Below are positions 252 through 17,207 of a DNA stretch of 64,000 nucleotides, in pieces; the stretch's first letter is position 1, and every line of letters starts with the position of its first letter. Under the pieces are notes generated by a model. It had not been told where the DNA came from, did no database searches, and was given only the letters and a program-made list of their open reading frames with translations. This DNA comes from a phage, in the NCBI GenBank assembly GCA_008273105.1, contig GCA_008273105.1_4080.1; one strand, written 5' to 3'. A program made the translations under genes and the position numbers.

Positions 252-728
252 TCATAAACCATTTTTCTCCAGGTACTCAATAATACAATCGACATTGTTC
301 AGGTCCAAGTAGAAATGATCACTATCGGAATTTAGTTCATTTTTAAGGGCTGTTAAAATCACTGAACTGAAAACAATCCTCTCTGGATACACAGTACTGT
401 ACTGGAAGAACTCTTCTTCAGTGTTAATTACAATCGTATCAAATGCTTCATTTATAAGAAGATGATTGTAGTATTTGAAATTATCTGAACTTGGGAAATG
501 GTATGAAATAAAATCACCACTTGGTACTTCATCAAGCACTCTAATACTACAAGTTGATTCATCTGAGCTATAGAGTAACCCATCCATAAAGGAAAGATAT
601 CCATTTCGTTTAATAACTTTATTTTTATCAATTAAAAAATCTTCAGTAACATTCGCAAGGAATTTATAAACCCTGATAATGTCTTTTGCTATTTTTTGTG
701 CATTGCTAAATGATAGGTCTTTGGACAT
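252..728 (-). CDS. family-A small protein (F-Q core motif)
   Basis: ORF 158 aa; core motif TEEEFFQYSTVY then FYLD, shared with array paralogs. Confidence 0.6.
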   Translation of the reverse strand: MSKDLSFSNAQKIAKDIIRVYKFLANVTEDFLIDKNKVIKRNGYLSFMDGLLYSSDESTCSIRVLDEVPSGDFISYHFPSSDNFKYYNHLLINEAFDTIVINTEEEFFQYSTVYPERIVFSSVILTALKNELNSDSDHFYLDLNNVDCIIEYLEKNGL

Positions 729-787
729 TGTGTTATAACCCTTTACAATTAATATAAAGGGATTATATCACAAAAAATCGGTGGGTG

Positions 788-1372
788 TCAAGAGTGGTTG
801 CGAAGTTCTACCATTTCTTCCCAAACTAATTGGTAATCTTCTAAGTCCAGATAGAAGTCTTCATTCCAGTGCACATGAAAGTACTTATACATGAATAGAA
901 CTCCTAAATCGTATGCAGGAAACAATAATGATAGTTGAAAGTAGTATTCCTGATTTAAAACTATATCAATAAACTCTAATGTACGTATGCCACCTTTCGA
1001 TGAACGTATCTCAATGTGTGAGGTATCCTTCATACTGTAACACATGAAACCACCTCTAAATTCTGGATCATATTCACATTCGAACTGCTCACTGTTGTTA
1101 TAGAAATCTCTCCCACTTTCTTGATCTTTCGGTCTACGTACTGATACATGAATATTTTTATCACGGTACATTGAACGATTTAGTATTTTCAAACATTTGA
1201 ACTTATCTTCTTTAATGAACTTGATAATATCAATTATATCTTGTGCTGTACTGATAGCTGATTCGAATGTATCCAACTTAAGATGATTATATTGGGTTCC
1301 AGAGTTCATTTTTTTATCTAACATATAAACCTCATAATTCATACATTTTTGATTTGAACTGCATATGACCAC
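788..1372 (-). CDS. family-A small protein (divergent)
   Basis: ORF 194 aa; motif QEYYFQLSLLF ... FYLDLEDY; true start may be internal (about 1324). Confidence 0.5.
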   Translation of the reverse strand: MVICSSNQKCMNYEVYMLDKKMNSGTQYNHLKLDTFESAISTAQDIIDIIKFIKEDKFKCLKILNRSMYRDKNIHVSVRRPKDQESGRDFYNNSEQFECEYDPEFRGGFMCYSMKDTSHIEIRSSKGGIRTLEFIDIVLNQEYYFQLSLLFPAYDLGVLFMYKYFHVHWNEDFYLDLEDYQLVWEEMVELRNHS

Positions 1373-1667
1373 CTATTTCACATGGATAACAATTCATAAT
1401 TTTGTTCAATAGAATCTGGTATTTTTTAATAACTTCTATATCAATTTTTATATTACTATTAAAAACTAATGATTCTTGAAATAATTCCCCCTCGTCAAGT
1501 GAAGTAAAATCATTTATCTTCAAGGGTATATTGTTGCATCGCAAGGAGAATGTATTTTCATCACGAATTAAAGTATAGAAATCATTATGTTTTTTATTAT
1601 AATCAAATTTAACAAGTAGTAGTTTAATATGAGTAGCGTACATTACTTTAACTAATTCAGTCTTCAT
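1332..1667 (-). CDS. family-A small protein
   Basis: ORF 111 aa; motif DEGELFQESLVFN. Confidence 0.55.
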   Translation of the reverse strand: MKTELVKVMYATHIKLLLVKFDYNKKHNDFYTLIRDENTFSLRCNNIPLKINDFTSLDEGELFQESLVFNSNIKIDIEVIKKYQILLNKIMNCYPCEIGGHMQFKSKMYEL

Positions 1668-2019
1668 AACGGAATAAAATTCTCCTGTACTGCTCCGGTC
1701 CAGTACTCAATCTCTTCACTGGATAATTATCAAAGATTCTTTTCATTTCTTTCTGGATTAAACATAAGAAATCAAAGTTACAATCGTACTTATTATCCCA
1801 TACTAAACTTTCTTGGAATAACTCATCCTCTTGCATTAGTGTAGTGTCAATTACATCTTCACGAACATAGCTATATACTTCATAGCTCTTGAAGCCATCT
1901 TCTGATAATTCTAATTCATATGCAGCCATATCAAACATATCATCATGGTTTGTCTTCAATGATATTAAACAAGTAACTAATTTTTTAGTTGTATAGTATG
2001 TAATACTTAATGTGTTCAT
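1657..2019 (-). CDS. family-A small protein
   Basis: ORF 120 aa; motif QEDELFQESLVWD. Confidence 0.55.
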   Translation of the reverse strand: MNTLSITYYTTKKLVTCLISLKTNHDDMFDMAAYELELSEDGFKSYEVYSYVREDVIDTTLMQEDELFQESLVWDNKYDCNFDFLCLIQKEMKRIFDNYPVKRLSTGPEQYRRILFRYED

Positions 2020-2024
2020 TTGTT

Positions 2025-2627
2025 TTATACCTCAGTATAAAGCTTACAATAGCTTTCATCAAAATCACAAACACTTCTCAAGTACTGACACAGGTCATTG
2101 AAAATATTTACATTTGATATATATACATTATCAAATTCTGTTCGTTGAAAGAATGTATGCATAGAATTTGTAATATATCGCATTGCATCTTCACGTCCCA
2201 TAGTTATATCATTTGTGAACATTGCATCTTCATCAGTACTGATGTGTTCTATTTTAAATGATTTCATAAATGGAATACTCTTTCCTAGGGCATAACCATC
2301 ACCATATGATGCTTCTACTGCACCTTTAGAATAAAGGAATTGATATAAGTCCGAATCACGATTATAAAAAGTACGACATACGGAGGAACATAATTTATTA
2401 TCTATATGAAATAAAAATCTTTTAGCATTTTTGTCTAATACTATTCGCAATGCATCACTCTCTAGAAATATATCACCATCAAGCATAAATGAGAACTGTA
2501 CTAATGCTTTTTCTAAATCCGCTCGTTTGTGATAAATCATTTCCTGCATATATATAATATCATTTGCTAATTTCTTAAAAAACAAATGCACATCTGCACT
2601 ACAACATTTATTTGCATTTATTGACAT
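2025..2627 (-). CDS. hypothetical protein
   Basis: ORF 200 aa, co-oriented and abutting neighbours; no clear family motif. Confidence 0.5.
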   Translation of the reverse strand: MSINANKCCSADVHLFFKKLANDIIYMQEMIYHKRADLEKALVQFSFMLDGDIFLESDALRIVLDKNAKRFLFHIDNKLCSSVCRTFYNRDSDLYQFLYSKGAVEASYGDGYALGKSIPFMKSFKIEHISTDEDAMFTNDITMGREDAMRYITNSMHTFFQRTEFDNVYISNVNIFNDLCQYLRSVCDFDESYCKLYTEV

Positions 2628-3178
2628 AATAGTTCCTTATACATATGATGTACTTTACAAATCTCATTATAGTATTTCATATCAATGTCATTTGTATTAA
2701 AAACGGAAACAGACAATACTGCTAACTTATCAATTAAGTAATTATTATCGGCGTACTCTTTTAACTTATTGAACATATAGATGCATTTTATACTTAATTC
2801 ATCATGCAACACACTGTTCTGAAAAATATTCTCTTCAGTATTAGGAGATAAGTAATCTTCAATTATATACGATAAACTACTATCGCAATCTTTATAGATT
2901 GAAATTGATGGATGTAATGTGTCATACATTACACTAAACAGATCACCGTCATATGTGGATATTAAACTATTATTGGAAACAGTAGGATGATAATATTTCA
3001 GTACTGAAAACTTTGAACAATCAGTGCAGTAAAAATGATCCATCCCTCGACGACTTTCGTATGAGAATAGTTTACTTGTATATTCAATCCCTTTGGTGCG
3101 ACGGATTGTTTCATGCATTTCTGCACATTGCATTAAAATTACCATACGTTCAAACGCAATATCTAAATCATCGTACAT
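2618..3178 (-). CDS. family-A small protein
   Basis: ORF 186 aa; motif TEENIFQNSVLHD. Confidence 0.55.
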   Translation of the reverse strand: MYDDLDIAFERMVILMQCAEMHETIRRTKGIEYTSKLFSYESRRGMDHFYCTDCSKFSVLKYYHPTVSNNSLISTYDGDLFSVMYDTLHPSISIYKDCDSSLSYIIEDYLSPNTEENIFQNSVLHDELSIKCIYMFNKLKEYADNNYLIDKLAVLSVSVFNTNDIDMKYYNEICKVHHMYKELLCQ

Positions 3179-3359
3179 AACGGATATCCTTCTTCAGCGA
3201 ATTAATATATTCCAAAATAACTTGTTCCTGATATTGGGTTCCCAAGTACATCAGGACTTTCAACTCTTTGAATTCAGTACTATATGAGTCTGTTTGCATC
3301 ATTCTAGTAGAATATATATTGAATAGTTTAGCAATGTCATTTTGGTCTATTATTTTCAT
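3168..3359 (-). CDS. family-B small protein (LGTxxQ core)
   Basis: ORF 63 aa; motif YLGTQYQEQVI; outlying member of the 16-24 kb array family. Confidence 0.5.
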   Translation of the reverse strand: MKIIDQNDIAKLFNIYSTRMMQTDSYSTEFKELKVLMYLGTQYQEQVILEYINSLKKDIRYVR

Positions 3360-3558
3360 ATATTCTCTTCTGGATTAGTTCCTGTAAGTGCTGAATATAA
3401 CCCTTCATTGCAACATCCTGTTTGTTAGAGCCAACGAAGAACAAGAGCTTAAAGTCATGGTAATCCATTTTTGGTTTAGTAGTGAACCATATGTCCCACA
3501 CTGCACTCACAGTTCTCATGTATTCAATTCGATTAAATGTTTTTGAATACTTCATCAA
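3337..3558 (-). CDS. family-B-like small protein
   Basis: ORF 73 aa; degenerate motif FVGSNKQDVAM. Confidence 0.45.
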   Translation of the reverse strand: MMKYSKTFNRIEYMRTVSAVWDIWFTTKPKMDYHDFKLLFFVGSNKQDVAMKGYIQHLQELIQKRIYENNRPK

Positions 3559-4069
3559 TGTTAATCGCCAATAAGTTAATATACAAATTACTGTTAAATG
3601 CTATCTGCAATTCCATATAGAACTGAATGATAGCATAGTCAGGGTCAGTACACGATAGTTGAAAACACTGTTCGTCAAATGCATTGTAATTGTACTTAGG
3701 GATGTGAATTTCACGCTTCAAATCAGGTTGACCCCACTTCATCGCATACACACCAATGTTATTGTTCTTTTTCCTTTTCTTAAATGTTAATTGTTGAATA
3801 TTTCCAGCGTTGTCTAGGAAAATAGTATTATTCGACACAGGTGCACCAATAGAAAACAATGATGTATCAATTACGTGTGTCTCACGCACCTCACACTTCT
3901 GGAATGCCCCAGTACCCTGTAATACATAATGAAAATTGTACTTCTCATTAACAACAGTACTAGGATCGATTAAACCAGTACTGCATTTTTTGAGTACTGG
4001 TACAATGGTGCGAATCTTTTTTGATAAATCTTGTAATGCATCAAAGTCATTGATGTTAACTTTCATCAC
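3533..4069 (-). CDS. hypothetical protein (weak family-A signal)
   Basis: ORF 178 aa; GTGAFQKCEV weak match to F-Q core. Confidence 0.5.
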   Translation of the reverse strand: MMKVNINDFDALQDLSKKIRTIVPVLKKCSTGLIDPSTVVNEKYNFHYVLQGTGAFQKCEVRETHVIDTSLFSIGAPVSNNTIFLDNAGNIQQLTFKKRKKNNNIGVYAMKWGQPDLKREIHIPKYNYNAFDEQCFQLSCTDPDYAIIQFYMELQIAFNSNLYINLLAINIDEVFKNI

Positions 4070-4515
4070 TCGAATGTAGCCTCTTCAGTAGTAACAAAAT
4101 TGGTTAGTGTATCCAGTTCAGCAGTGTCAAGATAAAATACATCTAGTACAGATTTCTGATATATTACACTGAATGTGCATAGATTGTCAAGTGTCCCTTG
4201 TTCATAAACAGTACTACCCTGGAAGTACCCTTCTTCAGTACTCAGGGATAAAATATCTGAAATTTTAAAAGATTCTTCAGTTGCATGTCTTTCTATATTA
4301 ACTATATTGCCGTTTCGGTTCAATGAAATATAATCGTATGCTAACTCAATTAGACTATAATTATCCGCATTAGTGTCAAATAAAGCGACAATTTTTCGTC
4401 TCAATCTCTCATCGTGATCATGGTTTTCATCAGCTAAGTATTCAGGATTTTCTTTGAAGAATTTAACGACGCGTAGAATATCATTTGCTTTCTTGATTGC
4501 ACTTTCGTAACTCAT
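4066..4515 (-). CDS. family-A small protein
   Basis: ORF 149 aa; motif STEEGYFQGSTVY ... FYLD; ATGA overlap with neighbour. Confidence 0.55.
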   Translation of the reverse strand: MSYESAIKKANDILRVVKFFKENPEYLADENHDHDERLRRKIVALFDTNADNYSLIELAYDYISLNRNGNIVNIERHATEESFKISDILSLSTEEGYFQGSTVYEQGTLDNLCTFSVIYQKSVLDVFYLDTAELDTLTNFVTTEEATFE

Positions 4516-4820
4516 AATAATTCAACCACTCCATCTCTAAAGTACATATAACTACCACCATTGGATACTGTGAATTCTATTGTCCCCAATAATATATTAT
4601 ATTTTTTTATTTCACATGTAGTACTTGTAGTGTAAGGCTCACCATCTCCTAAGTACATTGACATATGACATAGAACTTTTCTACCAGCATATTTCTCTTC
4701 AAACGATTGTTCAAAACTATGCATAATTTGATTTAAAGCTGAAATGTAATTAATAAAGTCAGGTATTTCTGTCAATGAATTATAAACCGTACAAAGTGAA
4801 TCAAATTCATTTTTAGTCAT
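4512..4820 (-). CDS. hypothetical protein
   Basis: ORF 102 aa in operon context; no family motif. Confidence 0.45.
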   Translation of the reverse strand: MTKNEFDSLCTVYNSLTEIPDFINYISALNQIMHSFEQSFEEKYAGRKVLCHMSMYLGDGEPYTTSTTCEIKKYNILLGTIEFTVSNGGSYMYFRDGVVELL

Positions 4821-5134
4821 TATATTTCTATCTCAATGTAATCCTGTGTGATTAAATAATCCCAATGATACTTCACCTGCTTTTGTAATTCAATTAACGT
4901 AAAGAAGTTGATCGATTTATCCCATACGAGAGATTCCTGGAAAATAAATGATTCATGTTCATCGTAATAATCACACTCTAAAAAATCAGGTATATATTCA
5001 CTATCGTGAATGTATTCAACAAACGAACTAGCTTGGCATTTCTTTACTACTAGTAATAATGAATTATCATGATCAAACAGATACAATAAACTAATTTCAC
5101 CAGGGACGTACTGAACACTGAATAAGTTTTTCAT
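4820..5134 (-). CDS. family-A small protein
   Basis: ORF 104 aa; motif ESFIFQESLVWD. Confidence 0.55.
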   Translation of the reverse strand: MKNLFSVQYVPGEISLLYLFDHDNSLLLVVKKCQASSFVEYIHDSEYIPDFLECDYYDEHESFIFQESLVWDKSINFFTLIELQKQVKYHWDYLITQDYIEIEI

Positions 5135-5583
5135 TCTATACCTTCTGGATCTTTACGAAGTTCTTCGAAATCCAAATAAAATCGAGGACAGTTAACACTC
5201 TTTAAGTACCACATAATAACTAATGCTTCAAGTACTTCATCATCGTAAACAGTACTGTTTTGGAAGTAATACTCTTCACTATCCCACGGACCTTCCAGTA
5301 CTTCATAATTCAAAATTAATGGTTTTTTGCGATTAATAAAACGAATGCTACCATTTTCAACATAACTAATAAATTCTGCATCTCTATTGTATTCAGAAAA
5401 CGATATAGGACTATTGGAATTCAACCCAAGAATAACCCTTACACCAACGGAGTTATTATACATTTCATCCTTGTAGTAGTTGCCGTTCTCGGCTTTGTAC
5501 ACTTCTTTGAACTTTCCTGCCTTTATATCGTCAAAGTATCCATGTAGTTCTTTTGCTTTTTCAAGAGCACTTTGTAATGACAT
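5131..5583 (-). CDS. family-A1 protein (MSLQSAL... GPWDSEEYYFQ subfamily)
   Basis: ORF 150 aa; N-term MSLQSALEKAK, core GPWDSEEYYFQNSTVY, MWYLKS, FYLDF. Confidence 0.65.
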   Translation of the reverse strand: MSLQSALEKAKELHGYFDDIKAGKFKEVYKAENGNYYKDEMYNNSVGVRVILGLNSNSPISFSEYNRDAEFISYVENGSIRFINRKKPLILNYEVLEGPWDSEEYYFQNSTVYDDEVLEALVIMWYLKSVNCPRFYLDFEELRKDPEGIE

Positions 5584-6049
5584 TACCTTCTCCTACAGTA
5601 TTCTCTACATATTCATAATCAAAATAGAAACTACTGGAGTCAATACTTTTGAAATACCACATAATTACAATAACATCTAATTCTTCTTCATTGTACAACG
5701 TACTATTCTGGAAGTAATATTCTTCACTATCCCACGGTCCTTCCAGTACTGAATAAGGAATGATAGTGTCATCAGCATCACTATCTGTGTTGTAGATGGT
5801 AATATCTTCATTACGGCAATAACTAATGTACTGATTGTACATATGATATTCACAGTTATCACTGTCACCAGTATCAGTGTGCAGTACTAATGTTTCTGCA
5901 CATATCTCGGACTCGTCATAATCGTCACGGTCTTTTACAAAAAATTCAGTATCAGATGTTTTATATACACCTGGTACTGAACCTTCCTGTACCATAATCA
6001 TGTACTCATGAATCTTCTTTGCTTCTTTCAATGCACTTTGTAATGACAT
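5561..6049 (-). CDS. family-A1 protein
   Basis: ORF 162 aa; MSLQSALKEAK ... GPWDSEEYYFQNSTLY ... MWYFKS. Confidence 0.65.
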   Translation of the reverse strand: MSLQSALKEAKKIHEYMIMVQEGSVPGVYKTSDTEFFVKDRDDYDESEICAETLVLHTDTGDSDNCEYHMYNQYISYCRNEDITIYNTDSDADDTIIPYSVLEGPWDSEEYYFQNSTLYNEEELDVIVIMWYFKSIDSSSFYFDYEYVENTVGEGNVITKCS

Positions 6050-6492
6050 TACAAATCCCCTGTACTTAAATATTCACATGCTCCCCAGTCAAGAAAGAAT
6101 GGTTCAAAATTCAATTCCTTAAAGTACCACAACACAACCAAGGAATCAAGAATTTCTTGGTTAAAAATGAGACTCTGTTGGAAGTAATACTCTTCAGAAC
6201 CCCACGGGCCATCAAGTACCCCGAAGTCAACAGGTGTATTTGTTGTGTCAAAAGTAATCTTAGTACCTGGAATATATACAAAAAAATTAGTATATTGACT
6301 ACATGAAGAGTACTGTATAGTATTGTCTTTATCCTGTCCCATAAGTAAAATATCATCAGAGTATGTCTTTATACCTGATAGATAATACTCATTACCAAAT
6401 GCACTTACTTTATCACCATAGAAACCACTTTTTATGTTATCGTGGAAGTGATGTATTCTGTGTGCTAGTTCAAGTGCACTTGCTAAACTCAT
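6049..6492 (-). CDS. family-A1 protein
   Basis: ORF 147 aa; MSLASALELAH ... GPWGSEEYYFQQSLIF ... LWYFKE. Confidence 0.65.
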   Translation of the reverse strand: MSLASALELAHRIHHFHDNIKSGFYGDKVSAFGNEYYLSGIKTYSDDILLMGQDKDNTIQYSSCSQYTNFFVYIPGTKITFDTTNTPVDFGVLDGPWGSEEYYFQQSLIFNQEILDSLVVLWYFKELNFEPFFLDWGACEYLSTGDL

Positions 6493-6959
6493 ATATCCTC
6501 TTTAATAACTCGTAGTAGATCCAAGTCCAAATAGAAGCTAGGACAATCTGTATTATTAAAGTACCACAGAATGACAAGCTTGTCAAGTACATCTTCCTCG
6601 TAGATAGTATTCTGCTGGAAGTAGTACTCTTCACTTCCCCAGTCATTATCCAGTACTGAATACGGAAGATGTTTCTCTGCTGCACCAGATATAATGTCAG
6701 AATCTTGTATTAAAATATCAGCATCACGACAGAAGTACATGTAATTATCTTCCAAATTAACATCACACCCATTGAGTGTTGTTTCAGAAGAATCTAAGTT
6801 TTCTTCATACATGTGAATGTACTCACTACTGTCATCGTATCTCATTCGACAATATGATTTACCTTCCTTGAATAGATATCCATTAAGACAATTTGCTACA
6901 ATTTCTTTGCTGCATAAATCAATTAACTTCGCAATCTCTAATGCTCTTTCTAAACTCAT
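6489..6959 (-). CDS. family-A1 protein
   Basis: ORF 156 aa; MSLERALEIAK ... DWGSEEYYFQQNTIY ... LWYFNN. Confidence 0.65.
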   Translation of the reverse strand: MSLERALEIAKLIDLCSKEIVANCLNGYLFKEGKSYCRMRYDDSSEYIHMYEENLDSSETTLNGCDVNLEDNYMYFCRDADILIQDSDIISGAAEKHLPYSVLDNDWGSEEYYFQQNTIYEEDVLDKLVILWYFNNTDCPSFYLDLDLLRVIKEDI

Positions 6960-6960
6960 T

Positions 6961-7452
6961 TCAACCCCTGTTAATACCGTTATCTACAGTTTTCTTTACG
7001 TATTTGTAATCGAAATAGAAGTTCCCAGAACCAATACTTTTAAAGTACCACATAATTATAATAACATCAAGTACTTCATTATCATATACAGTACTTTGTT
7101 GGAAGTAATACTCTTCACTATCCCACGGACCTTCCAGTACTTCACTCGGAATTATAATGTCATTGGAATCGCTGTCAGTACTGTTGATGGTATCTGTATC
7201 ATTAATATAGACCATGTACTCATTATGCATATTAATGAAGCATTCATAATCATTAGGGTCGGTATCTAGTATGCACGTTTCTGTATCCAGTACGCACGTT
7301 TCTGTATCTGAGCAGTCATTATAAAGGAGGTTATCCGGTACATAATATTGAGTACTTGTGTCTTTGAAAACACCGTAAACTGAACCTTCTTTTGCCATAT
7401 TCATGTACTCATGAATCTTCTTTGCTTTTTCCAATGAACTCTGTAATGTCAT
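6961..7452 (-). CDS. family-A1 protein
   Basis: ORF 163 aa; MTLQSSLEKAK ... GPWDSEEYYFQQSTVY ... MWYFKS. Confidence 0.65.
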   Translation of the reverse strand: MTLQSSLEKAKKIHEYMNMAKEGSVYGVFKDTSTQYYVPDNLLYNDCSDTETCVLDTETCILDTDPNDYECFINMHNEYMVYINDTDTINSTDSDSNDIIIPSEVLEGPWDSEEYYFQQSTVYDNEVLDVIIIMWYFKSIGSGNFYFDYKYVKKTVDNGINRG

Positions 7453-7461
7453 TTTATAATC

Positions 7462-7821
7462 TCATATATTGAAATAATAATTATTCGTTCTTGATGGGGA
7501 TGGATTAAATACGTTTTCTTTTTCAAATCTCTTCATTTCATTTTGCAAAGAAACCATTTCTTCAAATGTACAGGAGTACTTATTCTTATCAAACACTAAT
7601 GCAGCCTGAAATAGTTCACCATCGTCCAGTACTGTATAATCTATAAGACTCTCAGATTCATAGTCATAGTCGTCATGTGATACATGAATAAATTTAAAAC
7701 AAGAATCTTTGTAATGCATATATAAACTCAACTCATGTTCCGAGTCGCCCTTAATAAGATTACAGCACAAGTCCCATCCTTTAGGTAACTTATAATAGTA
7801 CATAGAATAATCATATGTCAT
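7462..7821 (-). CDS. family-A small protein
   Basis: ORF 119 aa; motif DDGELFQAALVFD. Confidence 0.55.
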   Translation of the reverse strand: MTYDYSMYYYKLPKGWDLCCNLIKGDSEHELSLYMHYKDSCFKFIHVSHDDYDYESESLIDYTVLDDGELFQAALVFDKNKYSCTFEEMVSLQNEMKRFEKENVFNPSPSRTNNYYFNI

Positions 7822-8174
7822 TCTTGAATTCCTAAATTGAATTTGTATTCTTGATTAATACTTGCATTGGGTTTATGCAAAGCAGCATACTCTTTCATTT
7901 CATTTTGTATTGCAATAACTTCTTCAAATGTACACAAGTACTTCTTATCAAATACTAATGATTCTTGGAATAGTTCTGCGGTATCCATTAATGTATAGTC
8001 CGGCATATCTTGGTGTGGATACTGTAATGAACTGTAATCAATGAATGTAAATTTACCCTGAGTGTAATGAATATACTCATTTGCACTGTGCATTAAATCA
8101 CCTTTGTTTAAATTACAAAAGTACTGATAACTGTGCTTGAAAGTATGTACTGATATTAAAAAATCAAATTCCAT
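7818..8174 (-). CDS. family-A small protein
   Basis: ORF 118 aa; motif DTAELFQESLVFD; its N-terminal 79 bp is duplicated at 8625-8703. Confidence 0.55.
   Translation of the reverse strand: MEFDFLISVHTFKHSYQYFCNLNKGDLMHSANEYIHYTQGKFTFIDYSSLQYPHQDMPDYTLMDTAELFQESLVFDKKYLCTFEEVIAIQNEMKEYAALHKPNASINQEYKFNLGIQE
8096..8174. repeat. 79-bp direct repeat, copy 1 (5' end of gene 7818..8174)
   Basis: aatcacctttgtttaaattacaaaagtactgataactgtgctt...ccat, near-identical (2 mismatches) to 8625-8703. Confidence 0.8.
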
Positions 8175-8545
8175 CAGTACTCAACCTCTACATAAATAGA
8201 TTCAGGAAACTTAGTCATATAATCTTCTGGATAGTTCTGCATTACTTTGATCATTTCTGCCTGTGTAGCACGGACGTATTCAATTGGTGCTCCTGGTAAA
8301 TTCCAGACAGTACTTTCCTGAAAGAATTCCTCTTCTGACAGTACTGTCAGATTTACAAAATCATTACGGTAATTTTTTGAATCATCATATGTGAAGATTT
8401 TAAAAGACCCATTTTCATATAGTACAAGAACAAAATGGGAGAATTTTTGTAATGCACCACCAAGGCTTTCCACGACCGCATGATTCAGTGTACAGATGAC
8501 CTCTTTTTTCCTCATACCGAATTGAATTCTAATTTCTTTTTTCAT
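8174..8545 (-). CDS. family-A small protein
   Basis: ORF 123 aa; motif SEEEFFQESTVWN. Confidence 0.55.
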   Translation of the reverse strand: MKKEIRIQFGMRKKEVICTLNHAVVESLGGALQKFSHFVLVLYENGSFKIFTYDDSKNYRNDFVNLTVLSEEEFFQESTVWNLPGAPIEYVRATQAEMIKVMQNYPEDYMTKFPESIYVEVEY

Positions 8546-8703
8546 AAAATCTCCTTCAGATTAGTACTGAATTTGTACAGAATATTAGAACTGTATACAG
8601 CCTCTGTATCTGTATCCATAATCAAATCACCTTTGTTTAAATTACAAAAGTACTGATAACTGTGCTTAAAAGAATGTACTGATATTAAAAAATCAAATTC
8701 CAT
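8542..8703 (-). CDS. chimeric ORF / gene fragment from partial duplication
   Basis: 53-codon frame; first 27 aa duplicate N-terminus of 7818..8174 then diverge; ATGA overlaps at both ends. Confidence 0.3.
   Translation of the reverse strand: MEFDFLISVHSFKHSYQYFCNLNKGDLIMDTDTEAVYSSNILYKFSTNLKEIL
8625..8703. repeat. 79-bp direct repeat, copy 2
   Basis: Near-identical to 8096-8174. Confidence 0.8.
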
Positions 8704-9080
8704 CACTCTTCCCCTAGATTGAAATGATTACAAAAATCATCTTCACCAGTACTGCACCAGATGTCTATACATTCTCTGTGAATACATTTAATTCTACGCT
8801 GTAATTCAATCATCTCTTCTAATGTACAGATGTACTTCTTATCAAATACTAATGCCGCCTGAAACAGTGCAGCATCATCAAGTACTGTATAGTCCAACAT
8901 CTCGGTTGCTTTACCCCTAAACCCAGTACTAAAATCCATCAAATAAAAGTCAGCATTCCAGTACTTTAAAATCTTGTCCCTAGCGTAGTTTAAATCACCC
9001 TTGTATAAGTTAGAGTGCGTAACTAACTCACCAGTGTACATCCATGTCCTTGCACAAAATTCATTATATTTTATTTCCAT
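8703..9080 (-). CDS. family-A small protein
   Basis: Motif DDAALFQAALVFD; start set at MEIKYNEF (9080) because upstream 47 aa of the six-frame ORF look like translated non-coding sequence. Confidence 0.5.
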   Translation of the reverse strand: MEIKYNEFCARTWMYTGELVTHSNLYKGDLNYARDKILKYWNADFYLMDFSTGFRGKATEMLDYTVLDDAALFQAALVFDKKYICTLEEMIELQRRIKCIHRECIDIWCSTGEDDFCNHFNLGEE

Positions 9081-9276
9081 CTTAATCTCTACTATAATTA
9101 ATAAGGTAAACTCCAATATAAGGAGAACGTTCGGCGGCGGGGTATTTTTTGTTTCAAGAAACATGAACTGTACTCTGAAAAACACAATATAAAACTTTAT
9201 ATTAAACATATACCTTAGCATGTTTTTCAGCGGAAATTTTTTTGACCCCCCTGCGGCCTGTCAAAATGAAACGTCT

Positions 9277-9501
9277 CTATTTATTCAGCCTAGAAACCTT
9301 GATTTCTTCAATCCTTTTCATTGCACAAAGCCTTCGACTCGTCCTCTCGTATATATTCAATACTCGCTGTAATGCATTATCTGTATTATCTGCAACTGCA
9401 ATCTGAACCAAATATGTATCCTTCAAAATAGAATCCATCATGAATTCAAAACCTTTCACACTAAAGCAATATGCCACTTCCGGCTCTTCAAACGTAATCA
9501 T
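9277..9501 (-). CDS. hypothetical protein
   Basis: ORF 74 aa, co-oriented. Confidence 0.45.
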   Translation of the reverse strand: MITFEEPEVAYCFSVKGFEFMMDSILKDTYLVQIAVADNTDNALQRVLNIYERTSRRLCAMKRIEEIKVSRLNK

Positions 9502-9691
9502 AATTCCAATCCCCTATTCCCTCTAACCTTCTAAGATATCTTGCGTAAATTATTTCGAAATATCTGTGCAACGAAATTACGGATTGCTCATAATCATCAT
9601 TCCTGTACATTGTGCATGTCAGAAAATCATTTAACCCAAAATCTAAACTGCACTTGAACTTCTCCTTAGCAACATCTCTAAAATTATTCAT
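9488..9691 (-). CDS. hypothetical protein
   Basis: ORF 67 aa, overlaps neighbour stop. Confidence 0.45.
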   Translation of the reverse strand: MNNFRDVAKEKFKCSLDFGLNDFLTCTMYRNDDYEQSVISLHRYFEIIYARYLRRLEGIGDWNYDYV

Positions 9692-9845
9692 AATATGTCC
9701 TCTGTACAGCGTAGGTGTACTGTGAACTCAGCACCACTAATAGGTAATCTATATTGTAAGCACGATTTCCTCGTTGACTAGCACGGCTGGAATAAAGAAT
9801 ATTATCCACATATGTATTGAACTGATCTTCAAATAACTCTTTCAT
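9684..9845 (-). CDS. hypothetical small protein (53 aa, below ORF-track cutoff)
   Basis: Manual translation MKELFEDQFNTYVDN...; stop overlaps next ATG (ATGAATAA). Confidence 0.35.
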   Translation of the reverse strand: MKELFEDQFNTYVDNILYSSRASQRGNRAYNIDYLLVVLSSQYTYAVQRTYYE

Positions 9846-9873
9846 CAGCATTATACCATCACATAATCATACA

Positions 9874-10425
9874 TCATACATTAACAACTTTATCGATGTA
9901 ATCTTCTAACATATCAATATATCTGGTATTGGTTCTAACTAAAAGGTATGCAAATCCAGAGAACTCCTGTGTATAATGCTTTACAGCGTACATACAACGA
10001 AGCTTATCATTGTCATACATTGTACTGTACTGAAACAAACTCTCGTCTGATAGCTCTAATAACGCTTGGGCTTCACTTCTCGTGAACTTCATAGGGTCAT
10101 GTACTGCATCACAAAAACAAACCTGTGTCTCGCTATTGAAACCCTGTGATAGATATATACCTTCACACTCTGAACGCACCGATACTGCATTATAACTATG
10201 TGTTGCCCCCATCATATCTGAACTCAAAACTAAAATCAACCCATTTTTATTTTTAATCAACAAATCTGACTTAAGGGATTTGATCTCCGTATGGGAAATA
10301 TCACCAAATCTTCCTGGGACTTCAAACTTATCAACGTTGTATACAATCTTTTGTACTTGCTCTTTTAAACGCTTAATTGCACTTCTGTCTTTTTCTAATG
10401 TATCTAATAAACTCATTGAACTCAT
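9874..10425 (-). CDS. family-A small protein
   Basis: Motif SDESLFQYSTMYD; start set at MSSMSLL preceded by AAGGAAAG. Confidence 0.5.
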   Translation of the reverse strand: MSSMSLLDTLEKDRSAIKRLKEQVQKIVYNVDKFEVPGRFGDISHTEIKSLKSDLLIKNKNGLILVLSSDMMGATHSYNAVSVRSECEGIYLSQGFNSETQVCFCDAVHDPMKFTRSEAQALLELSDESLFQYSTMYDNDKLRCMYAVKHYTQEFSGFAYLLVRTNTRYIDMLEDYIDKVVNV

Positions 10426-10435
10426 TGTACTTTCC

Positions 10436-10780
10436 TTACATATTTGTACCGAACAAAACGGAACTTTGAATGCCATTAATCGACACTTCATGTACATATA
10501 TATTTTGTCTGAACAAAGGAACTAATTGAACTAAACTCGTTTGCATAATAATATGCATATGTACATTGTCATATGCCGTTTCGTATTGGAATCGTGCAGC
10601 TTCATCTTCTATGAAATTCGGAACTTGGACTGGATTCTCAAAATTTGTCCTTGTACTGAACTGTACATCATTGTCCTGTACCTTAATACCATATGAATTA
10701 TCATTGTTATCAACTACATCAAATTCAATTAAACTACCATCTTTACTGACGTTTACTATATAAACCGAAAATCGACTCAT
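10436..10780 (-). CDS. family-A small protein (divergent)
   Basis: ORF 114 aa; motif EDEAARFQYETAYD. Confidence 0.5.
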   Translation of the reverse strand: MSRFSVYIVNVSKDGSLIEFDVVDNNDNSYGIKVQDNDVQFSTRTNFENPVQVPNFIEDEAARFQYETAYDNVHMHIIMQTSLVQLVPLFRQNIYVHEVSINGIQSSVLFGTNM

Positions 10781-11295
10781 AAACCTATTTCCTCTAAATC
10801 TTTGACAAATGTATCATAATCCGATAATGACAAAAATATGTCTGTACTGATGTTTTGACGTAATGTATTAAACAAATTATGTACCTGTAATAAATCAGGT
10901 GCATAAATCAGGGATTGCTGGAAATACGATTCTTCTGTATCTAATATATCCCTGCACTCAATTTCACGAACTCGTTGGTATATTGAATTTAATAATACAT
11001 TTTCATCTTTGAGCATTGGAAGGTATCTGATGTACATGTGCTCCATCAACTCATCCTGGATTGAACCCCTGAACTGCAACACGTATTCAAAACACATCAC
11101 TACATCTTGTAGGTAATTGGCACTGTAATTATTGCTGTAAACAATCTTATGACTTCTGAACTCATCATCATCATTTCTGAACCAATTGTCACCCACTTTG
11201 GTGTACTTATGACTAAGCTTCCCATCCTCCAACGCTCGAATGAACTTCATAATGTTAATTGCAAAATCATATGAATGATGCTTGTGTTGATGCAT
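10777..11295 (-). CDS. family-A small protein
   Basis: ORF 172 aa; motif DTEESYFQQSLIY. Confidence 0.55.
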   Translation of the reverse strand: MHQHKHHSYDFAINIMKFIRALEDGKLSHKYTKVGDNWFRNDDDEFRSHKIVYSNNYSANYLQDVVMCFEYVLQFRGSIQDELMEHMYIRYLPMLKDENVLLNSIYQRVREIECRDILDTEESYFQQSLIYAPDLLQVHNLFNTLRQNISTDIFLSLSDYDTFVKDLEEIGL

Positions 11296-11303
11296 TTTTT
11301 ACC

Positions 11304-11498
11304 TCAATTCTGTCCGAAAAAATAACCAAAATGTTTAAAGCAAGAAAGCATTACTATGTTCATCACTCTATCATCAAATTCATCTTGTGTTTCTGCACAT
11401 AATGTTTCACAGATATTCAAATGTAATAATTCAAGCTGGAAACTGTCGGTGAACCAATCAAACTTACGGTATTTTTGTTTAACATCAACTGTAAGCAT
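11304..11498 (-). CDS. hypothetical protein
   Basis: ORF 64 aa. Confidence 0.4.
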   Translation of the reverse strand: MLTVDVKQKYRKFDWFTDSFQLELLHLNICETLCAETQDEFDDRVMNIVMLSCFKHFGYFFGQN

Positions 11499-11499
11499 A

Positions 11500-12123
11500 C
11501 TATATATCCAACCCTTTTACAACATCTACGAAATGTTCAAACACTTCTTTTGAAAAATAACCACCTTCACAAAAAAGCATACTAAACGGTGGCAGCATGT
11601 CCGATAACTCTTTAGCTAAATTGATTTCTGCTCTTAACTCTTGAACATCAATGATATCATGTACTAAAGATAATTGAAACATGAATGCATCTACATCTTC
11701 ATTCATTTCTGAATTGTAATATAACTCTTCAGGGAATTTGTCGGTTTCGTAATAATAAAAAACTTTATTGTTGAACACACCACTAATAGGAACATCATTT
11801 TCATCTTTCTTTGAAATGTTTGTTTCCCATGACTCTATATTATTAGGAACAAAAAAATCATAGGCTGATTTTGAACCCTGTACTGAATCCAACTTTATTC
11901 CATAATATTCCGTATCCATGTATTTCTGCTGTAATGTAATACCACGTGTACTGACATTCACTTGGAATATATCATCTTTATCTGGAACACTAAATGGAAT
12001 ACATAACACTGAATTCTCAGGGTATTTGGCAATGAATGCATCCAGCACTTTATTAAGCACCGGAATGGCAATTTTACTGTACTGCATCAAATCATACATT
12101 TTAATTCTGGTCATATCATTCAC
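11500..12123 (-). CDS. family-A protein
   Basis: ORF 207 aa; motif EDVDAFMFQLSLVHD. Confidence 0.55.
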   Translation of the reverse strand: MNDMTRIKMYDLMQYSKIAIPVLNKVLDAFIAKYPENSVLCIPFSVPDKDDIFQVNVSTRGITLQQKYMDTEYYGIKLDSVQGSKSAYDFFVPNNIESWETNISKKDENDVPISGVFNNKVFYYYETDKFPEELYYNSEMNEDVDAFMFQLSLVHDIIDVQELRAEINLAKELSDMLPPFSMLFCEGGYFSKEVFEHFVDVVKGLDI

Positions 12124-12655
12124 CTGTGTATGTTTTCACCCTTAGCGATTCAAAATCCCATACATCACTGATTGTACCATTGTGCCTGTAATCATAATAT
12201 TCTACTAATACATTATACAATAACTTCAACGATACAAATTCATGATTCCACGGAGCTTTATTCTCATGAACACATTTGGTGATATAAGGTATAATATATA
12301 AACTAAACAACACTAATGGTGAATGTATACATTGCATTTGAAAATATTCTTCTTCTTGCATACAATGCTCAGGAATAATCAATTCCGTATGTGACCCTAA
12401 GCTATACGAACCTGCTGTGTATTTTTTCGTATCACATGCGTACCATATTGTACTATCCGAAATAAATGGAATGATACCATTATTGTTTGCAATGTACATC
12501 ATATGGTAAGAGCGATTTGTCTTGTTAAATATCTCGATACTTTCGATATTACTACAAATCATGTATTCAAGGCAATCAATGATCTTATCTTTAAATGTAC
12601 CAATTTCATTGAATGACATTGCTTTCTGTACTTTTGATACTGTTGTACTGCTCAT
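12116..12655 (-). CDS. family-A protein (divergent)
   Basis: ORF 179 aa; motif QEEEYFQMQCIH. Confidence 0.5.
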   Translation of the reverse strand: MSSTTVSKVQKAMSFNEIGTFKDKIIDCLEYMICSNIESIEIFNKTNRSYHMMYIANNNGIIPFISDSTIWYACDTKKYTAGSYSLGSHTELIIPEHCMQEEEYFQMQCIHSPLVLFSLYIIPYITKCVHENKAPWNHEFVSLKLLYNVLVEYYDYRHNGTISDVWDFESLRVKTYTGE

Positions 12656-13326
12656 ATGTTATCCTTAAAAAAATCCAAATACTCTTCATTGAAAGCATAT
12701 GTATCATCTTTTTTGTTATGCACCACATAATCATAAAGAGCTATGAATGCAGGGATTATGATCTTACATGATTTATTATTGTATTTGTGGTACTCCAAAT
12801 CAACGGTGTTCAATTTAGCAATAAGCATAGCAACAAAGATATCTTCATGGCGATGTACTGTACTGTACTGAAAATACTCATCCTCTCCAATATCTGGATG
12901 ATATAACGGTATAACCAAATTATTACGAATTGACATCTTATATTTTTGTAATGCAGCTAAATGTATGAACCACAATCTATCTTCATTGAAATATGGAAAA
13001 ATAATTTTGTCTGTGCTAATAAAAATTTCTTCATTTCGATTATTTGTCACAAGAGGTGCATACATTTTAATTTTTGCAGATCTAATAATTAAATTAAAAA
13101 TATAATGAATCTTATGAACTGCACTTGATGCATCTTCGTATGTACTTGGGATTATGAAACTCACTATATGTTCTCCTTTAAAATGATTACACATGATAAC
13201 AGCTTTGCACTTCTTTGTCAATACCAAAACGAAAAAAGCCCATATCTTACGATACAGGCGTGCTGGGCATGTTGATTTGAATTTCATTGTACAAATCATC
13301 AATATATAGACATGAAAAAAACACAC
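12652..13326 (-). CDS. family-A protein
   Basis: ORF 224 aa; motif GEDEYFQYSTVH; start probably internal (overlap with upstream gene). Confidence 0.5.
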   Translation of the reverse strand: MCFFHVYILMICTMKFKSTCPARLYRKIWAFFVLVLTKKCKAVIMCNHFKGEHIVSFIIPSTYEDASSAVHKIHYIFNLIIRSAKIKMYAPLVTNNRNEEIFISTDKIIFPYFNEDRLWFIHLAALQKYKMSIRNNLVIPLYHPDIGEDEYFQYSTVHRHEDIFVAMLIAKLNTVDLEYHKYNNKSCKIIIPAFIALYDYVVHNKKDDTYAFNEEYLDFFKDNI

Positions 13327-13753
13327 TATCTTGTACTATATTGTTGTGATAAAGCATTTTAAATACTACATAAAAAAATAAATCAATATCATCGTGGACT
13401 AAATTCTGCTGGAACCACCACTCGTCTGTTAAATCTTGTGCATTAAAATCATCAGGAACTTCAATGAACGACATATCACAATCTTCTTTGTACTCAAACC
13501 ACATGTCGTCATTCGGATAACGTTCATGCTTCTCTGGGTAACAATTGCTGGGATTAAATGTTAAAATATTAAACCCCGTAGAGCAACGTTCTTTATTTAA
13601 AAATGTATTATTCCATACCTGATATTTTTCACCAACATCAAGCTCTTCTGTTACTGATTTTATTGCACATAATGTACTGTATATTGTTTCTATCTTGTGA
13701 ACATATTTAAATGCAGCATCTAAGCTGAACTCTAAATCATACATGTACTGCAT
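13247..13753 (-). CDS. family-A protein
   Basis: ORF 168 aa; motif TDEWWFQQNLVHD. Confidence 0.55.
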   Translation of the reverse strand: MQYMYDLEFSLDAAFKYVHKIETIYSTLCAIKSVTEELDVGEKYQVWNNTFLNKERCSTGFNILTFNPSNCYPEKHERYPNDDMWFEYKEDCDMSFIEVPDDFNAQDLTDEWWFQQNLVHDDIDLFFYVVFKMLYHNNIVQDSVFFSCLYIDDLYNEIQINMPSTPVS

Positions 13754-14073
13754 AAAATTACCTCAACTAAAGCAAGGACTGTATTGAATTCCACTATACT
13801 TGTAATTCCTTGAAGGTACATGTACTTTGCTACTACATATTTCTGTACTAAATTATAATTTTTAAATTCCTCAAAATTGTAATTTAGAACAAAATCTGTA
13901 CTCAAAAATAACTTATGCATCTCTAATGCACTTTGATAATACGCGTACAACTCACTGATATCAATACTGGTTAAATTATATTGTTCATATCTATGATACG
14001 GGATGGCTTCAATTTCAATACTATAAAACCATTCTCTTAACTTATTAATATCAAATGTATTATTCAGCTTCAT
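13732..14073 (-). CDS. hypothetical protein
   Basis: ORF 113 aa. Confidence 0.45.
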   Translation of the reverse strand: MKLNNTFDINKLREWFYSIEIEAIPYHRYEQYNLTSIDISELYAYYQSALEMHKLFLSTDFVLNYNFEEFKNYNLVQKYVVAKYMYLQGITSIVEFNTVLALVEVILCSTCMI

Positions 14074-14626
14074 AACTCAATACCTCCATTAAACACTCAT
14101 ACACACCATCAATCGCATAAGCACAAAAATTGAAATTAATTTTGTGATTCTTGTGTAATGGACTATTGTGTACTGTACTCATTATGACATTATAAAATAA
14201 CAAACGCACTGGTACAAGCATTGAACCTTGGAAAAATTCTTCCTCTGATTTATATGTATTGTACTCTATTGTTTTGTTCGTTTCTTTATCATATGTTACC
14301 ATTACTAATGGGGCATTTTTATTATACCATGCGTACTCTAAATCATTCTTTCCAATAACAGCACCAGGTGCGAAATCCAAAAGACCAATAACACTACGGG
14401 AATTTGGGGTATCAGGTGTATTGAATCGTTTATCAAAATGACTCGTGCACGCAATATATGTATTGTACTTCGATGGAATAATACCAATACATTTGTGGAA
14501 ATGACGCTTGTGATATTTCTGGGCATTATATAAGGCTGCAACAATACAAGCTAACTTTTGTCCCATAAGGATTGCATTAGCGTAGGTGTACTGAATTTCA
14601 TTGCTGGTACGGTACTTCGAGGTCAT
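14060..14626 (-). CDS. family-A protein
   Basis: ORF 188 aa; motif SEEEFFQGSMLV. Confidence 0.55.
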   Translation of the reverse strand: MTSKYRTSNEIQYTYANAILMGQKLACIVAALYNAQKYHKRHFHKCIGIIPSKYNTYIACTSHFDKRFNTPDTPNSRSVIGLLDFAPGAVIGKNDLEYAWYNKNAPLVMVTYDKETNKTIEYNTYKSEEEFFQGSMLVPVRLLFYNVIMSTVHNSPLHKNHKINFNFCAYAIDGVYECLMEVLSYEAE

Positions 14627-14909
14627 AATATTTCCTTTGCCATATCATGGGCTTAAAATCAATAACAGCTTTCTGTATCTTTTTTAATAATAAGACATCA
14701 TAACCACCCGTGTCAATCACTAATTGCTGTTGGAACAATTCTTCATCGGATAATGTATTGAAATCTACAAAATAATCTGTAACTATCGAATCATTTAAAT
14801 GTGCCATGTACCAACCTGAACTTCTTGAATAAATCAAATTCCACCCATCGTCATCATCTTCTAATTCAACATAAATCATATCTGGGGTATACATCATTTT
14901 ATACTTCAT
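14598..14909 (-). CDS. family-A small protein
   Basis: ORF 103 aa; motif SDEELFQQQLVID. Confidence 0.55.
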   Translation of the reverse strand: MKYKMMYTPDMIYVELEDDDDGWNLIYSRSSGWYMAHLNDSIVTDYFVDFNTLSDEELFQQQLVIDTGGYDVLLLKKIQKAVIDFKPMIWQRKYYDLEVPYQQ

Positions 14910-15447
14910 AACTATATCCTTGCATTAATAAATCATAAACTACATGGACTAAATTTAATTGAATATAAAATTTTAAACCTTTAATTAATGGATTCAAATG
15001 CATTGTACTGAATAACATTAGATACATCATCTCATGCGGTTTTGTGATTAATGATTGTTGGAATACGCCAGCTTCATCATAAGGGTCTATGAACTGAAAT
15101 TTGTCTTCATCATAATTTGTATTGGAATGCTGATATATAAAATAATCATCATTGGTATTGTACCACAAATACCCTTCGAATCCTGTACTAACACCTTTGG
15201 TCAATGGGGATGCTGATACTGGATTTGAACTGATTAATGCACCTACATCAACAATCCCCGTTGTATCATATTCGATTTCAACATCAATATCAATGTATTT
15301 CCTTGCGATATCTGCGTTTATGGACAAATATAAACTACCACCTGTCCTCTGACTCAGGATTCCATCTATATGCGATATAGGATGGTTGTTATTGAGGATA
15401 AGCATTATTGTACTTATCTTGTGTGCTAATAACTCTATCTCATTCAT
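14899..15447 (-). CDS. family-A protein
   Basis: ORF 182 aa; motif DEAGVFQQSLIT. Confidence 0.5.
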   Translation of the reverse strand: MNEIELLAHKISTIMLILNNNHPISHIDGILSQRTGGSLYLSINADIARKYIDIDVEIEYDTTGIVDVGALISSNPVSASPLTKGVSTGFEGYLWYNTNDDYFIYQHSNTNYDEDKFQFIDPYDEAGVFQQSLITKPHEMMYLMLFSTMHLNPLIKGLKFYIQLNLVHVVYDLLMQGYSYEV

Positions 15448-15647
15448 AATTTACCTATCGATGGATACCTAGGATTTGTAGGATGTAAAATCCTGTCCTG
15501 TACTGAAAGGTGCTCAAATGTAATTAAACTCAAATAATAATCGTAATTATCAATACCACCCTTCAAATGTATATTGTAATACATCTTAATACTATCTAAT
15601 AATGAATCCTGTAATGCATTTAATGTTATCGTATTAATCTTTTGCAT
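15444..15647 (-). CDS. hypothetical protein
   Basis: ORF 67 aa. Confidence 0.45.
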   Translation of the reverse strand: MQKINTITLNALQDSLLDSIKMYYNIHLKGGIDNYDYYLSLITFEHLSVQDRILHPTNPRYPSIGKL

Positions 15648-15810
15648 TAATGTTCTTCTCTTAAAAATCGTTTGATAGCATAATCTAAATAAAATTCATA
15701 ACACATGCTATCTCTGTTCTTTATCCATATTTTGTAATCGGATTTTATATTACGCAACAAATAATTTGTATTAATTGTGTAATAATCTAATCGCCCTAAT
15801 CTTTCCATTT
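15646..15810 (-). CDS. hypothetical small protein (54 aa, below ORF-track cutoff)
   Basis: Manual translation MERLGRLDYYTINTNYLLRN...; TAATG overlap with downstream gene start. Confidence 0.4.
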
Positions 15811-16185: not shown

Positions 16186-16423
16186 ATTTGTTTATCTCAT
16201 TATGTACCTTAAGCATCAAAATTTGCATATGAATTTTTTGTTCAAGGTGCTTGATAAATTTCTGTGCCATTTCTTCTTGTTCCGATGTACCAAGATAAAA
16301 TAACAGATTAAATTCTGATAATCGCAAAGAAAAATCTTCATCACCACCCTTTAAACAAAAATCCCTGTACTTCGATGCGTACAAATATTGGTTTACTTTT
16401 TTATAATACCCTGTGTTTTGCAT
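16157..16423 (-). CDS. family-B small protein
   Basis: ORF 88 aa; motif YLGTSEQEEMA. Confidence 0.55.
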   Translation of the reverse strand: MQNTGYYKKVNQYLYASKYRDFCLKGGDEDFSLRLSEFNLLFYLGTSEQEEMAQKFIKHLEQKIHMQILMLKVHNEINKYEPNNSTGS

Positions 16424-17206: not shown

Positions 17207-17207
17207 G

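Follow-up and report, generated by a model that had tools for sequence, protein, structure and literature searches.

The question raised by this locus is whether five adjacent, similar genes of a jumbo phage are the product of a recent local burst of duplication or a set of old genes, each maintained in its own right. The genes occupy positions 5131 to 7452 of a 64,000-nucleotide (nt) stretch of phage DNA (GenBank assembly GCA_008273105.1, contig GCA_008273105.1_4080.1), the whole of which is called the window below. A first-pass annotation of the window had described them as near-duplicates with a common N-terminus and two common sequence blocks, differing mainly in a central acidic segment containing cysteine, and had interpreted them as a recent tandem amplification with a diversifying middle region. 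That observation was partly confirmed and its interpretation partly supported. Together, the five genes make up an old, syntenic, tandem branch within a larger family, called here the FQ superfamily, and each copy is separately conserved under purifying selection.

All five genes were present where the annotation had placed them, and all lie on the minus strand. They were designated as follows:

5131..5583, minus strand: g1, 150 amino acids (aa), isoelectric point (pI) 4.67, phrog_9317 (A1 subfamily)
5561..6049, minus strand: g2, 162 aa, pI 4.05, phrog_9317 (A1 subfamily)
6049..6492, minus strand: g3, 147 aa, pI 4.31, phrog_9317 (A1 subfamily)
6489..6959, minus strand: g4, 156 aa, pI 4.10, 6 Cys, phrog_9317 (A1 subfamily)
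6961..7452, minus strand: g5, 163 aa, pI 4.05, phrog_9317 (A1 subfamily)

Transcription runs from g5 to g1, and the genes are packed head to tail; at the junctions they are separated by at most 1 nt or overlap by up to 23 nt. A Shine-Dalgarno-like sequence is clear at four of the five genes and weak at g5. The predicted layout is that of one translationally coupled operon. On the plus strand, a 150-aa open reading frame (ORF) at 6817–7269 lies antisense to g4 and g5; it is rich in Ile, Leu, Ser, and Asn, mirrors the AT-rich coding strand opposite, and is probably spurious.

The sequence blocks quoted in the annotation were roughly right, each being exact in three of the five genes. The N-termini vary (MSLQSALEKAK, MSLQSALKEAK, MSLASALELAH, MSLERALEIAK, and MTLQSSLEKAK). 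The block GPWDSEEYYFQ(N/Q)ST is replaced in two genes by GPWGSEEYYFQQSL and NDWGSEEYYFQQNT, and (M/L)WYFK is replaced in two by MWYLK and LWYFN. All five genes matched phrog_9317 along its full length (profile positions 1 to ~155–158 of 160), with E values from 1.2e-55 to 8.9e-66. The least similar pair, g3 and g4, still gave a BLASTP E value of 6e-18, with significant similarity restricted to a 64-residue C-terminal module. Because of the full-length profile matches and the g3/g4 score, we conclude that the homology among the A1 genes is far beyond chance. Similarity limited to the short core motif, the finding that the annotation had named as contrary to its reading, was not seen for the group as a whole; the g3/g4 pair, confined to its C-terminal module, comes nearest to it. 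A profile hidden Markov model (HMM) of the A1 subfamily scored the five genes at 195–233 bits and every other family member at 33 bits or less, and to this extent the description of a distinct local tandem subfamily holds.

The term near-duplicate does not fit these genes. Pairwise identity among g1 to g5 was 30–58% for the proteins and 48–69% for the DNA, the closest pair being g2 and g5 (58% aa, 69% nt). Nonsynonymous (dN) and synonymous (dS) divergence were estimated by the Nei-Gojobori method; dS was saturated in all ten paralog pairs, with values of 1.1 to 2.4 and one pair undefined. The longest, and only, DNA stretch common to the A1 copies is a block of 145 nt, and the only recent duplication in the region is a short repeat inside g5:

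5164..5308, minus strand: 145-nt conserved DNA block, reference copy, encoding the C-terminal FQ module
5612–5756, 6082–6226, 6519–6663, and 7003–7147: the other four copies of the 145-nt block, 64–78% identical to the reference copy
7262..7308: 21-bp tandem repeat inside g5, 2.2 copies, encoding LDTETC(V/I)

The repeat is present in two copies in the window, 121Q, slurp01, and PBECO4, and in one copy in JP4, UE-S1, and A4. Long near-identical tracts of the kind left by gene conversion between A1 copies were looked for in the DNA of the five genes, and none was found.

The paralogs do differ mainly in the middle, as the annotation had stated: identity was 22% there, with 22% of positions gapped, whereas the N-terminal helix reached 48% and the C-terminal module 50%. 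Its description of a central acidic segment with Cys applies to g2, g4, and g5, whose middles contain 16–20 Asp plus Glu residues and 3–4 Cys. It does not apply to g1, whose middle is net basic and has no Cys, or to g3, whose middle has one Cys and is nearly neutral. A zinc-binding role for these Cys residues was considered and rejected, as no CxxC-type pattern is present and the Cys positions are not conserved among the paralogs.

The age of the copies was assessed by comparison with related phages. A megablast search with the region led to Asteriusvirus jumbo coliphages of the PBECO4/G17/121Q type, with the following DNA identities to the window:

Salmonella phage SD-6_S16 and Escherichia phage BF17: 99.8%
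G17, SHEFM2K, and Sharanji: 99.7%
PBECO4: 98.2%
121Q: 93%

CMSTMSU was left out of the comparisons, its region being broken into short ORFs. The orthologs of g1 to g5 in 121Q are gp374 to gp370, in unchanged order, and dS between the window and 121Q orthologs was 0.11–0.25. A neighbour-joining tree of the A1 subfamily from nine phages resolved five clean orthogroups, one per gene. Because dS is saturated between paralogs as against 0.11–0.25 between orthologs, and because the orthogroups are clean, we conclude that the A1 duplications predate the radiation of these phages; they are not recent. Selection on each gene was estimated relative to 121Q:

g1: dN/dS 0.27
g2: dN/dS 0.06 (most constrained of the five)
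g3: dN/dS 0.50 (least constrained of the five)
g4: dN/dS 0.22
g5: dN/dS 0.24

When pooled over all ortholog pairs by region, dN/dS was 0.21 in either flank (the N-terminus and the C-terminal module) and 0.32 in the middle; gene by gene, the middle had regional averages of 0.19–0.48. At this regional resolution, the middle of the A1 genes is somewhat relaxed yet under purifying selection, and "diversifying" in the sense of positive selection was not borne out.

Copy number in relatives, which the annotation had proposed as a check, does vary (5, 4, or ~3). The differences arise through loss or replacement of distinct old paralogs, not through gain of identical units. In fEgEco12 and ph0011, g4, g3, g2, and g1 are present and there is no g5 ortholog (best match 54–56%); at the place of g5, fEgEco12 has another family member, of the short form (g114), along with an ORF of 61 aa. 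Phage A4 has g5, g4, g3, and a divergent g2, and is without g1. In JNE01 and Turkey5, a gene resembling g4 (61% identity) is accompanied by two divergent members, g4 being the sole A1 gene with a recognisable ortholog in these divergent phages. A tblastn search with g1 matched five places in 25 of 36 phage records, four places in 9, and two places in 2; two phages are counted twice among the 36, as GenBank and RefSeq copies. The g1 alleles fell into two types, one at 92% identity or more (21 records) and one at ~69% (12 records), and allele type and g5 presence assorted independently; in SP27, for instance, g5 is found alongside the divergent g1 type. This independence indicates mosaic recombinational exchange within the array. 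We conclude that the array evolves through birth and death and through cassette exchange of whole genes, not through recent amplification.

The A1 genes are a small part of a much larger array. An iterated profile HMM search of all ORFs in the window found 28 members of the FQ superfamily, all of them minus-strand genes located from 252 to 17922, and alignment added a 29th. In the alignment of these 29 sequences, the only invariant residues besides the initiating Met are one F and one Q, which lie in the signature [S/T/D]-[E/D]-E-x-x-F-Q-x-S-[L/T]. The F-Q pair was invariant in all 29 window members and likewise in each of the 128 database sequences examined; the superfamily has a mean column identity of 14%. 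The proteins are ~100–200 aa and occur in a long form of ~145–225 aa, which includes g1 to g5, and a short form of ~100–135 aa. The array and the members nearest to A1 are:

252..17922, minus strand: FQ superfamily array, at least 29 paralogs, continuing past the left end of the window, where 121Q has further members
4066..4515, minus strand: nearest long-form relative outside A1, phrog_12674, 149 aa, motif STEEGYFQGST
4820..5134, minus strand: short-form member directly downstream of g1, 104 aa, motif EHESFIFQESL, its start overlapping the end of g1 by 4 nt
7462..8545, minus strand: three short-form members directly upstream of g5, 119, 118, and 123 aa

Comparable arrays were found elsewhere:

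121Q, 160.8–183.6 kb: at least 35 FQ members in one co-oriented array
Klebsiella phage RaK2, 245.6–273.1 kb: at least 25 FQ members
Uncultivated viral contig IMGVR_UViG_3300007747_000009 (109 kb), 1232–12389: at least 19 tandem long-form FQ members within 12.6 kb

Among the FQ members of the RaK2 array, no A1 subfamily member was seen. The uncultivated contig has 32% GC and a local subfamily of its own in which the N-terminal helix is related, and its members include a run with the N-terminus MTQ(F/Y)ELDLQYAK; its array looks like an independent local sub-expansion in an uncultivated relative. When 1.84 billion representative proteins were searched exhaustively with the profile, only 108 clusters (50% identity) were obtained at E ≤1e-3, all with the motif; the named ones belong to Asteriusvirus coliphages or to the Klebsiella phages RaK2, K64-1, and KP13-7. 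Neighbours in the array matched the sister PHROGs phrog_12674, phrog_13866, phrog_15629, phrog_32253, and phrog_28680, with weak cross-matches among these families. In PHROGs, phrog_9317 and its sisters are split and all labelled "unknown function", whereas here they form one superfamily.

An array of more than 30 similar genes was mentioned previously in 121Q, and tandem duplication was proposed as a way in which jumbo genomes filled enlarged capsids (Hua et al. 2017, mBio, PMC5646251). The number and description agree with the FQ array, which is probably the one meant. That account gives no coordinates, motif, subfamilies, or function, and its "very similar" is overstated given the column identity above. 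Searches of the literature on Asteriusvirus, 121Q, PBECO4, RaK2, phAPEC6, Sharanji, and fEgEco12 yielded generic remarks on paralogs and one sentence on the 121Q array, with no functional or transcriptional data on the family.

Structures of one long and one short member were predicted with AlphaFold2. The model of g5 had a predicted local distance difference test (pLDDT) score of 80.9 and a predicted template modelling (pTM) score of 0.79; the model of the short form encoded at 7818–8174 had a pLDDT of 88.2 and a pTM of 0.83. The motif-containing blocks in both had a pLDDT of ~90–96. The elements of the models, by residue, are:

g5: N-terminal helix 3–22; less confident beta region 35–101 (pLDDT ~59–77)
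g5: short helices, including the SEEYYFQ helix (113–119); hydrophobic helix 125–139
g5: strand 145–147; C-terminal helix 149–158
7818–8174: five strands; motif helix 65–75; second helix 83–99; terminal strand 108–112

The models predict a common alpha/beta domain for the superfamily, consisting of a variable beta-sheet, the motif helix, a second hydrophobic helix, and a terminal strand, in that order. The long and short models agree in the order of these elements, and the variable middle of the long form would therefore be the beta-sheet of the common domain. The A1 members are predicted to carry an additional N-terminal helix and C-terminal helix beyond this domain, and the conserved part of the domain, as modelled, consists of the two helices together with the terminal strand. 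The motif opens with S/T-E-E, which resembles a helix N-capping box, so the motif may be mainly structural.

Database searches with these proteins and models gave little beyond the family itself. In a Foldseek search of BFVD, the matches were confined to family members (of 121Q, SP27, and RaK2), and structure comparisons of the models gave no convincing fold relative for the FQ domain. Neither a Pfam scan of all 29 members nor an NCBIfam scan of the five A1 proteins gave a match; PADLOC models of known defence-system proteins gave none against the A1 proteins at E up to 1, and a sequence-profile search of the PDB gave none at E up to 10. The pI is below 5.5 in 26 of the 29 window members. A membrane or secreted location was also considered and rejected, since no hydrophobic membrane-like segment occurs in the five A1 proteins.

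The published virion proteome of phAPEC6, a close relative with 98.6% DNA identity over the region, contains 62 proteins, none of which lies between gp347 and gp549; the g5 ortholog in that phage is gp442c. By these phAPEC6 data, the FQ family is not detectably virion-associated. In 121Q, the array is preceded on the same strand by a run of ~100 tiny ORFs, which starts at a divergent junction beside an RCC1-like array on the opposite strand, and it is followed by genes for a DNA methyltransferase, NrdB, RNA ligase, polynucleotide kinase, and DNA ligase. The tiny-ORF block of the window (27351–44019, minus strand), which directly precedes the array on its strand, contains ten perfect TTGACA-16/17-TATAAT sites, all on the coding strand, and many TTGCAA-16-TATAAT variants; in total, 102 sigma-70-like sites were found in the block versus 74.5 ± 8.5 expected. 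On this basis the block looks like a dense early-promoter region. Within the array, a perfect sigma-70 match was found at 791–762 and matches at 11 of 12 positions at 17206, 14716, 13221, and 7178, the last being:

7151..7178, minus strand: sigma-70-like match CTGACA-16-TATAAT (11/12), inside g5 and upstream of g4, a consensus match only

Early expression of the array by the host RNA polymerase is plausible from this context.

Several other features of the flanking DNA were recorded. A 28-nt perfect hairpin, AAAGGGATTGACTYCGGTCAGTCCCTTT, occurs on the minus strand at 25823–25850, 27788–27815, 30728–30755, and 34399–34426, with none expected by chance. Three of the four copies (27788, 30728, and 34399) are followed by GCTATTATAT. 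The hairpin holds a TTGACT -35-like hexamer, so that a terminator-like stem overlaps a promoter-like site. A minus-strand ORF of 213 aa at 27827–28468 has weak protein-kinase-like Pfam matches (E ~2e-3), under the curated cut-off. Between ~44000 and ~46000, the sign of the GC skew and the coding strand both switch, with minus-strand genes on the left side and the plus-strand RCC1-like array on the right; the switch corresponds to the divergent junction at ~131.3 kb in 121Q. The RCC1-like array (49551–63626, plus strand) is a second tandem paralog array, with 12 ORFs of 245–433 aa containing RCC1-like beta-propeller repeats (Pfam RCC1, WD40_RLD). Its orthologs are annotated as "DNA condensation protein" and were detected in the phAPEC6 virion.

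What, then, might the FQ proteins do? Because they are small, acidic, and probably cytoplasmic, undetected in the virion, encoded in a probably early block, and built as a conserved scaffold with a variable surface, we suggest that they may be early host-directed effectors that serve host takeover or counter-defence. The proteins would be non-virion, cytoplasmic, and probably expressed early; the conserved helical module would act as the scaffold, and the divergent, often strongly acidic beta-region would be the surface that gives every paralog its own target. This functional reading is tentative, and we hold it with clearly less than even confidence. Four points weigh against it. The middle is not acidic in two of the five A1 genes. 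Sigma-70-like sites are not enriched in the array overall (113 found versus 122.5 expected), so the case for early expression comes mainly from the neighbouring block. The orthologs show no sign of positive selection in regional dN/dS, although proteins engaged in an active arms race would be expected to show it. Finally, the role of the invariant motif may be structural alone, for example as a helix N-cap together with core residues; it would then not have to be a site of activity or binding. By comparison, the evolutionary and structural description of the A1 and FQ families is very probably correct. Taken as a whole, an old FQ sub-branch that encodes host-directed effectors is the best explanation of the locus, at somewhat short of an even chance.

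Other explanations were weighed against the same data. A recent local tandem amplification (a "genomic accordion") with the middle diversifying under positive selection would account for adjacent, co-oriented, homologous genes that differ most in the middle, and it could draw on the differing copy number in related phages and on the varying copy number of the 21-bp repeat. It is scarcely credible given the saturated dS and 30–58% protein identity of the paralogs, the presence of a separate ortholog of every copy in phages whose DNA has diverged by up to ~20%, a middle dN/dS of 0.32, and the lack of long near-identical DNA shared by the copies. The expansion could instead be without function, a filler of neutral or selfish DNA for which a very large capsid leaves room, in keeping with the capsid-filling proposal (Hua et al. 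2017, PMC5646251) and with the dispensability of single members in some isolates. However, the ORFs are intact with their ribosome-binding sites kept, dN/dS is 0.06–0.50 across all five A1 genes, gene order is kept in diverged phages, and the family has been retained in both Asteriusvirus and Alcyoneusvirus; filler DNA is thus a very unlikely account. The motif itself suggests a different idea, in which [S/T]EE..FQ.S is a protease recognition site, a degron or cleavage site, and the family consists of substrates destroyed or processed on schedule, with ClpP-like proteases as candidates. Proteases of the 3C/NIa type recognise sites of the kind ExxYxQ|G/S; the site is ENLYFQ|G/S for tobacco etch virus (TEV) protease and LEVLFQ|GP for human rhinovirus (HRV) 3C protease. 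The FQ motif resembles these sites, the 4066–4515 protein reads EEGYFQGS (an exact match to ExxYxQ(G/S)), F-Q is invariant in 128 sequences despite ~15% overall identity, and ClpP-like and ClpYQ-like proteases are encoded in 121Q ~30–45 kb downstream. Yet the position that follows Q varies widely (N, Q, G, Y, L, M, E, A, or K), as that of a defined cleavage site would not, no 3C-like protease was seen, and both models place the motif in a helix within their most confidently predicted part (pLDDT ~90–96), which fits a structural element. As the motif is in a confidently predicted helix, the resemblance to 3C/NIa sites is most likely a coincidence, and we give a protease site very little credence.

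Two further possibilities concern the phage itself as the target. The FQ proteins might regulate the phage's own programme as small acidic binders of RNA polymerase, sigma, or replication proteins, in the manner of T4 AsiA and T7 Gp2. Whole-gene gain and loss among close relatives in a family of at least 30 paralogs would be unusual for core regulators, the fold matches were below a convincing level, and no sequence match to a known regulator family was found, making this role unlikely, though less so than those above. Alternatively, they might be assembly factors or chaperones that are not retained in the virion and that serve fibre, hair, or RCC1-like proteins, with about one helper per client. 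Absence from the virion is compatible with this, and these phages do have large paralogous sets of virion proteins, such as the RCC1-like array with its orthologs in the phAPEC6 virion. The FQ array, however, is apart from the structural genes, between the promoter-dense tiny-ORF block and nucleotide-metabolism genes; the counts do not match (~15 RCC1-like genes versus at least 35 FQ members in 121Q); and the fold contains no hint of a chaperone. A helper function therefore seems quite improbable.

The proposal of host-directed effectors can be compared with known systems. T4-like hyperplastic regions are blocks of small early ORFs. Like the FQ array, they contain small, co-oriented, tightly packed genes near host-polymerase promoters, with gain, loss, and replacement of cassettes among close relatives; they consist of mixed, unrelated ORFs, whereas the FQ block is mostly one paralogous family. 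The MGF360/505 families of African swine fever virus (ASFV) and the ankyrin and Bcl-2-like families of poxviruses are non-virion proteins that act in host range and immune evasion. They share with the FQ array tens of diverged tandem paralogs, birth-and-death evolution, strain-variable content, and absence from the virion. They have no sequence or fold relationship to the FQ family, and the recent amplification typical of the poxvirus "genomic accordion" was tested for in the A1 genes by dS and not found. Ocr and ArdA are small, strongly acidic, early, non-virion proteins, and g2, g4, and g5 are like them in pI (4.05–4.10) and in having acidic inserts. The FQ proteins matched no Pfam model (Ocr and ArdA models included) and no such fold, and two of the five A1 genes have no acidic insert; the likeness is one of possible mode, not of membership. 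Bacillus phage G contains ~35 copies of a zinc ribbon (Iyer et al. 2021, PMC7824862), which is the same phenomenon at a similar copy number in a domain unrelated to FQ. That survey did not describe the FQ family.

The claim of recent amplification was in itself ordinary and is largely wrong; the surrounding superfamily of ~30 genes without a known relative is moderately interesting. Phages of the RaK2/121Q group spend ~20 kb, or ~6% of the genome, on this family. It is a tractable target, having old, individually conserved copies that are absent from the phAPEC6 virion proteome and a confidently predicted fold without a convincing relative, and isolates provide natural knock-outs, with g5 missing in fEgEco12-type phages and no g1 in A4. 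Since phages of this group are therapy candidates for E. coli and Klebsiella, determinants of host range or counter-defence would be of practical relevance. A broader possibility, which we regard as doubtful, is that the FQ superfamily is an undescribed class of modular effectors, in which a scaffold held by F-Q carries a hypervariable, often DNA-like acidic surface and every one of the 25–35 paralogs per genome counters a different host factor or defence system. We know of no phage nucleus in RaK2/121Q-type jumbo phages. If the broader possibility were true, the array would be to bacteriophages what the host-range multigene families are to poxviruses and ASFV, and it could partly explain how RaK2/121Q-type phages cope with diverse host immunity.

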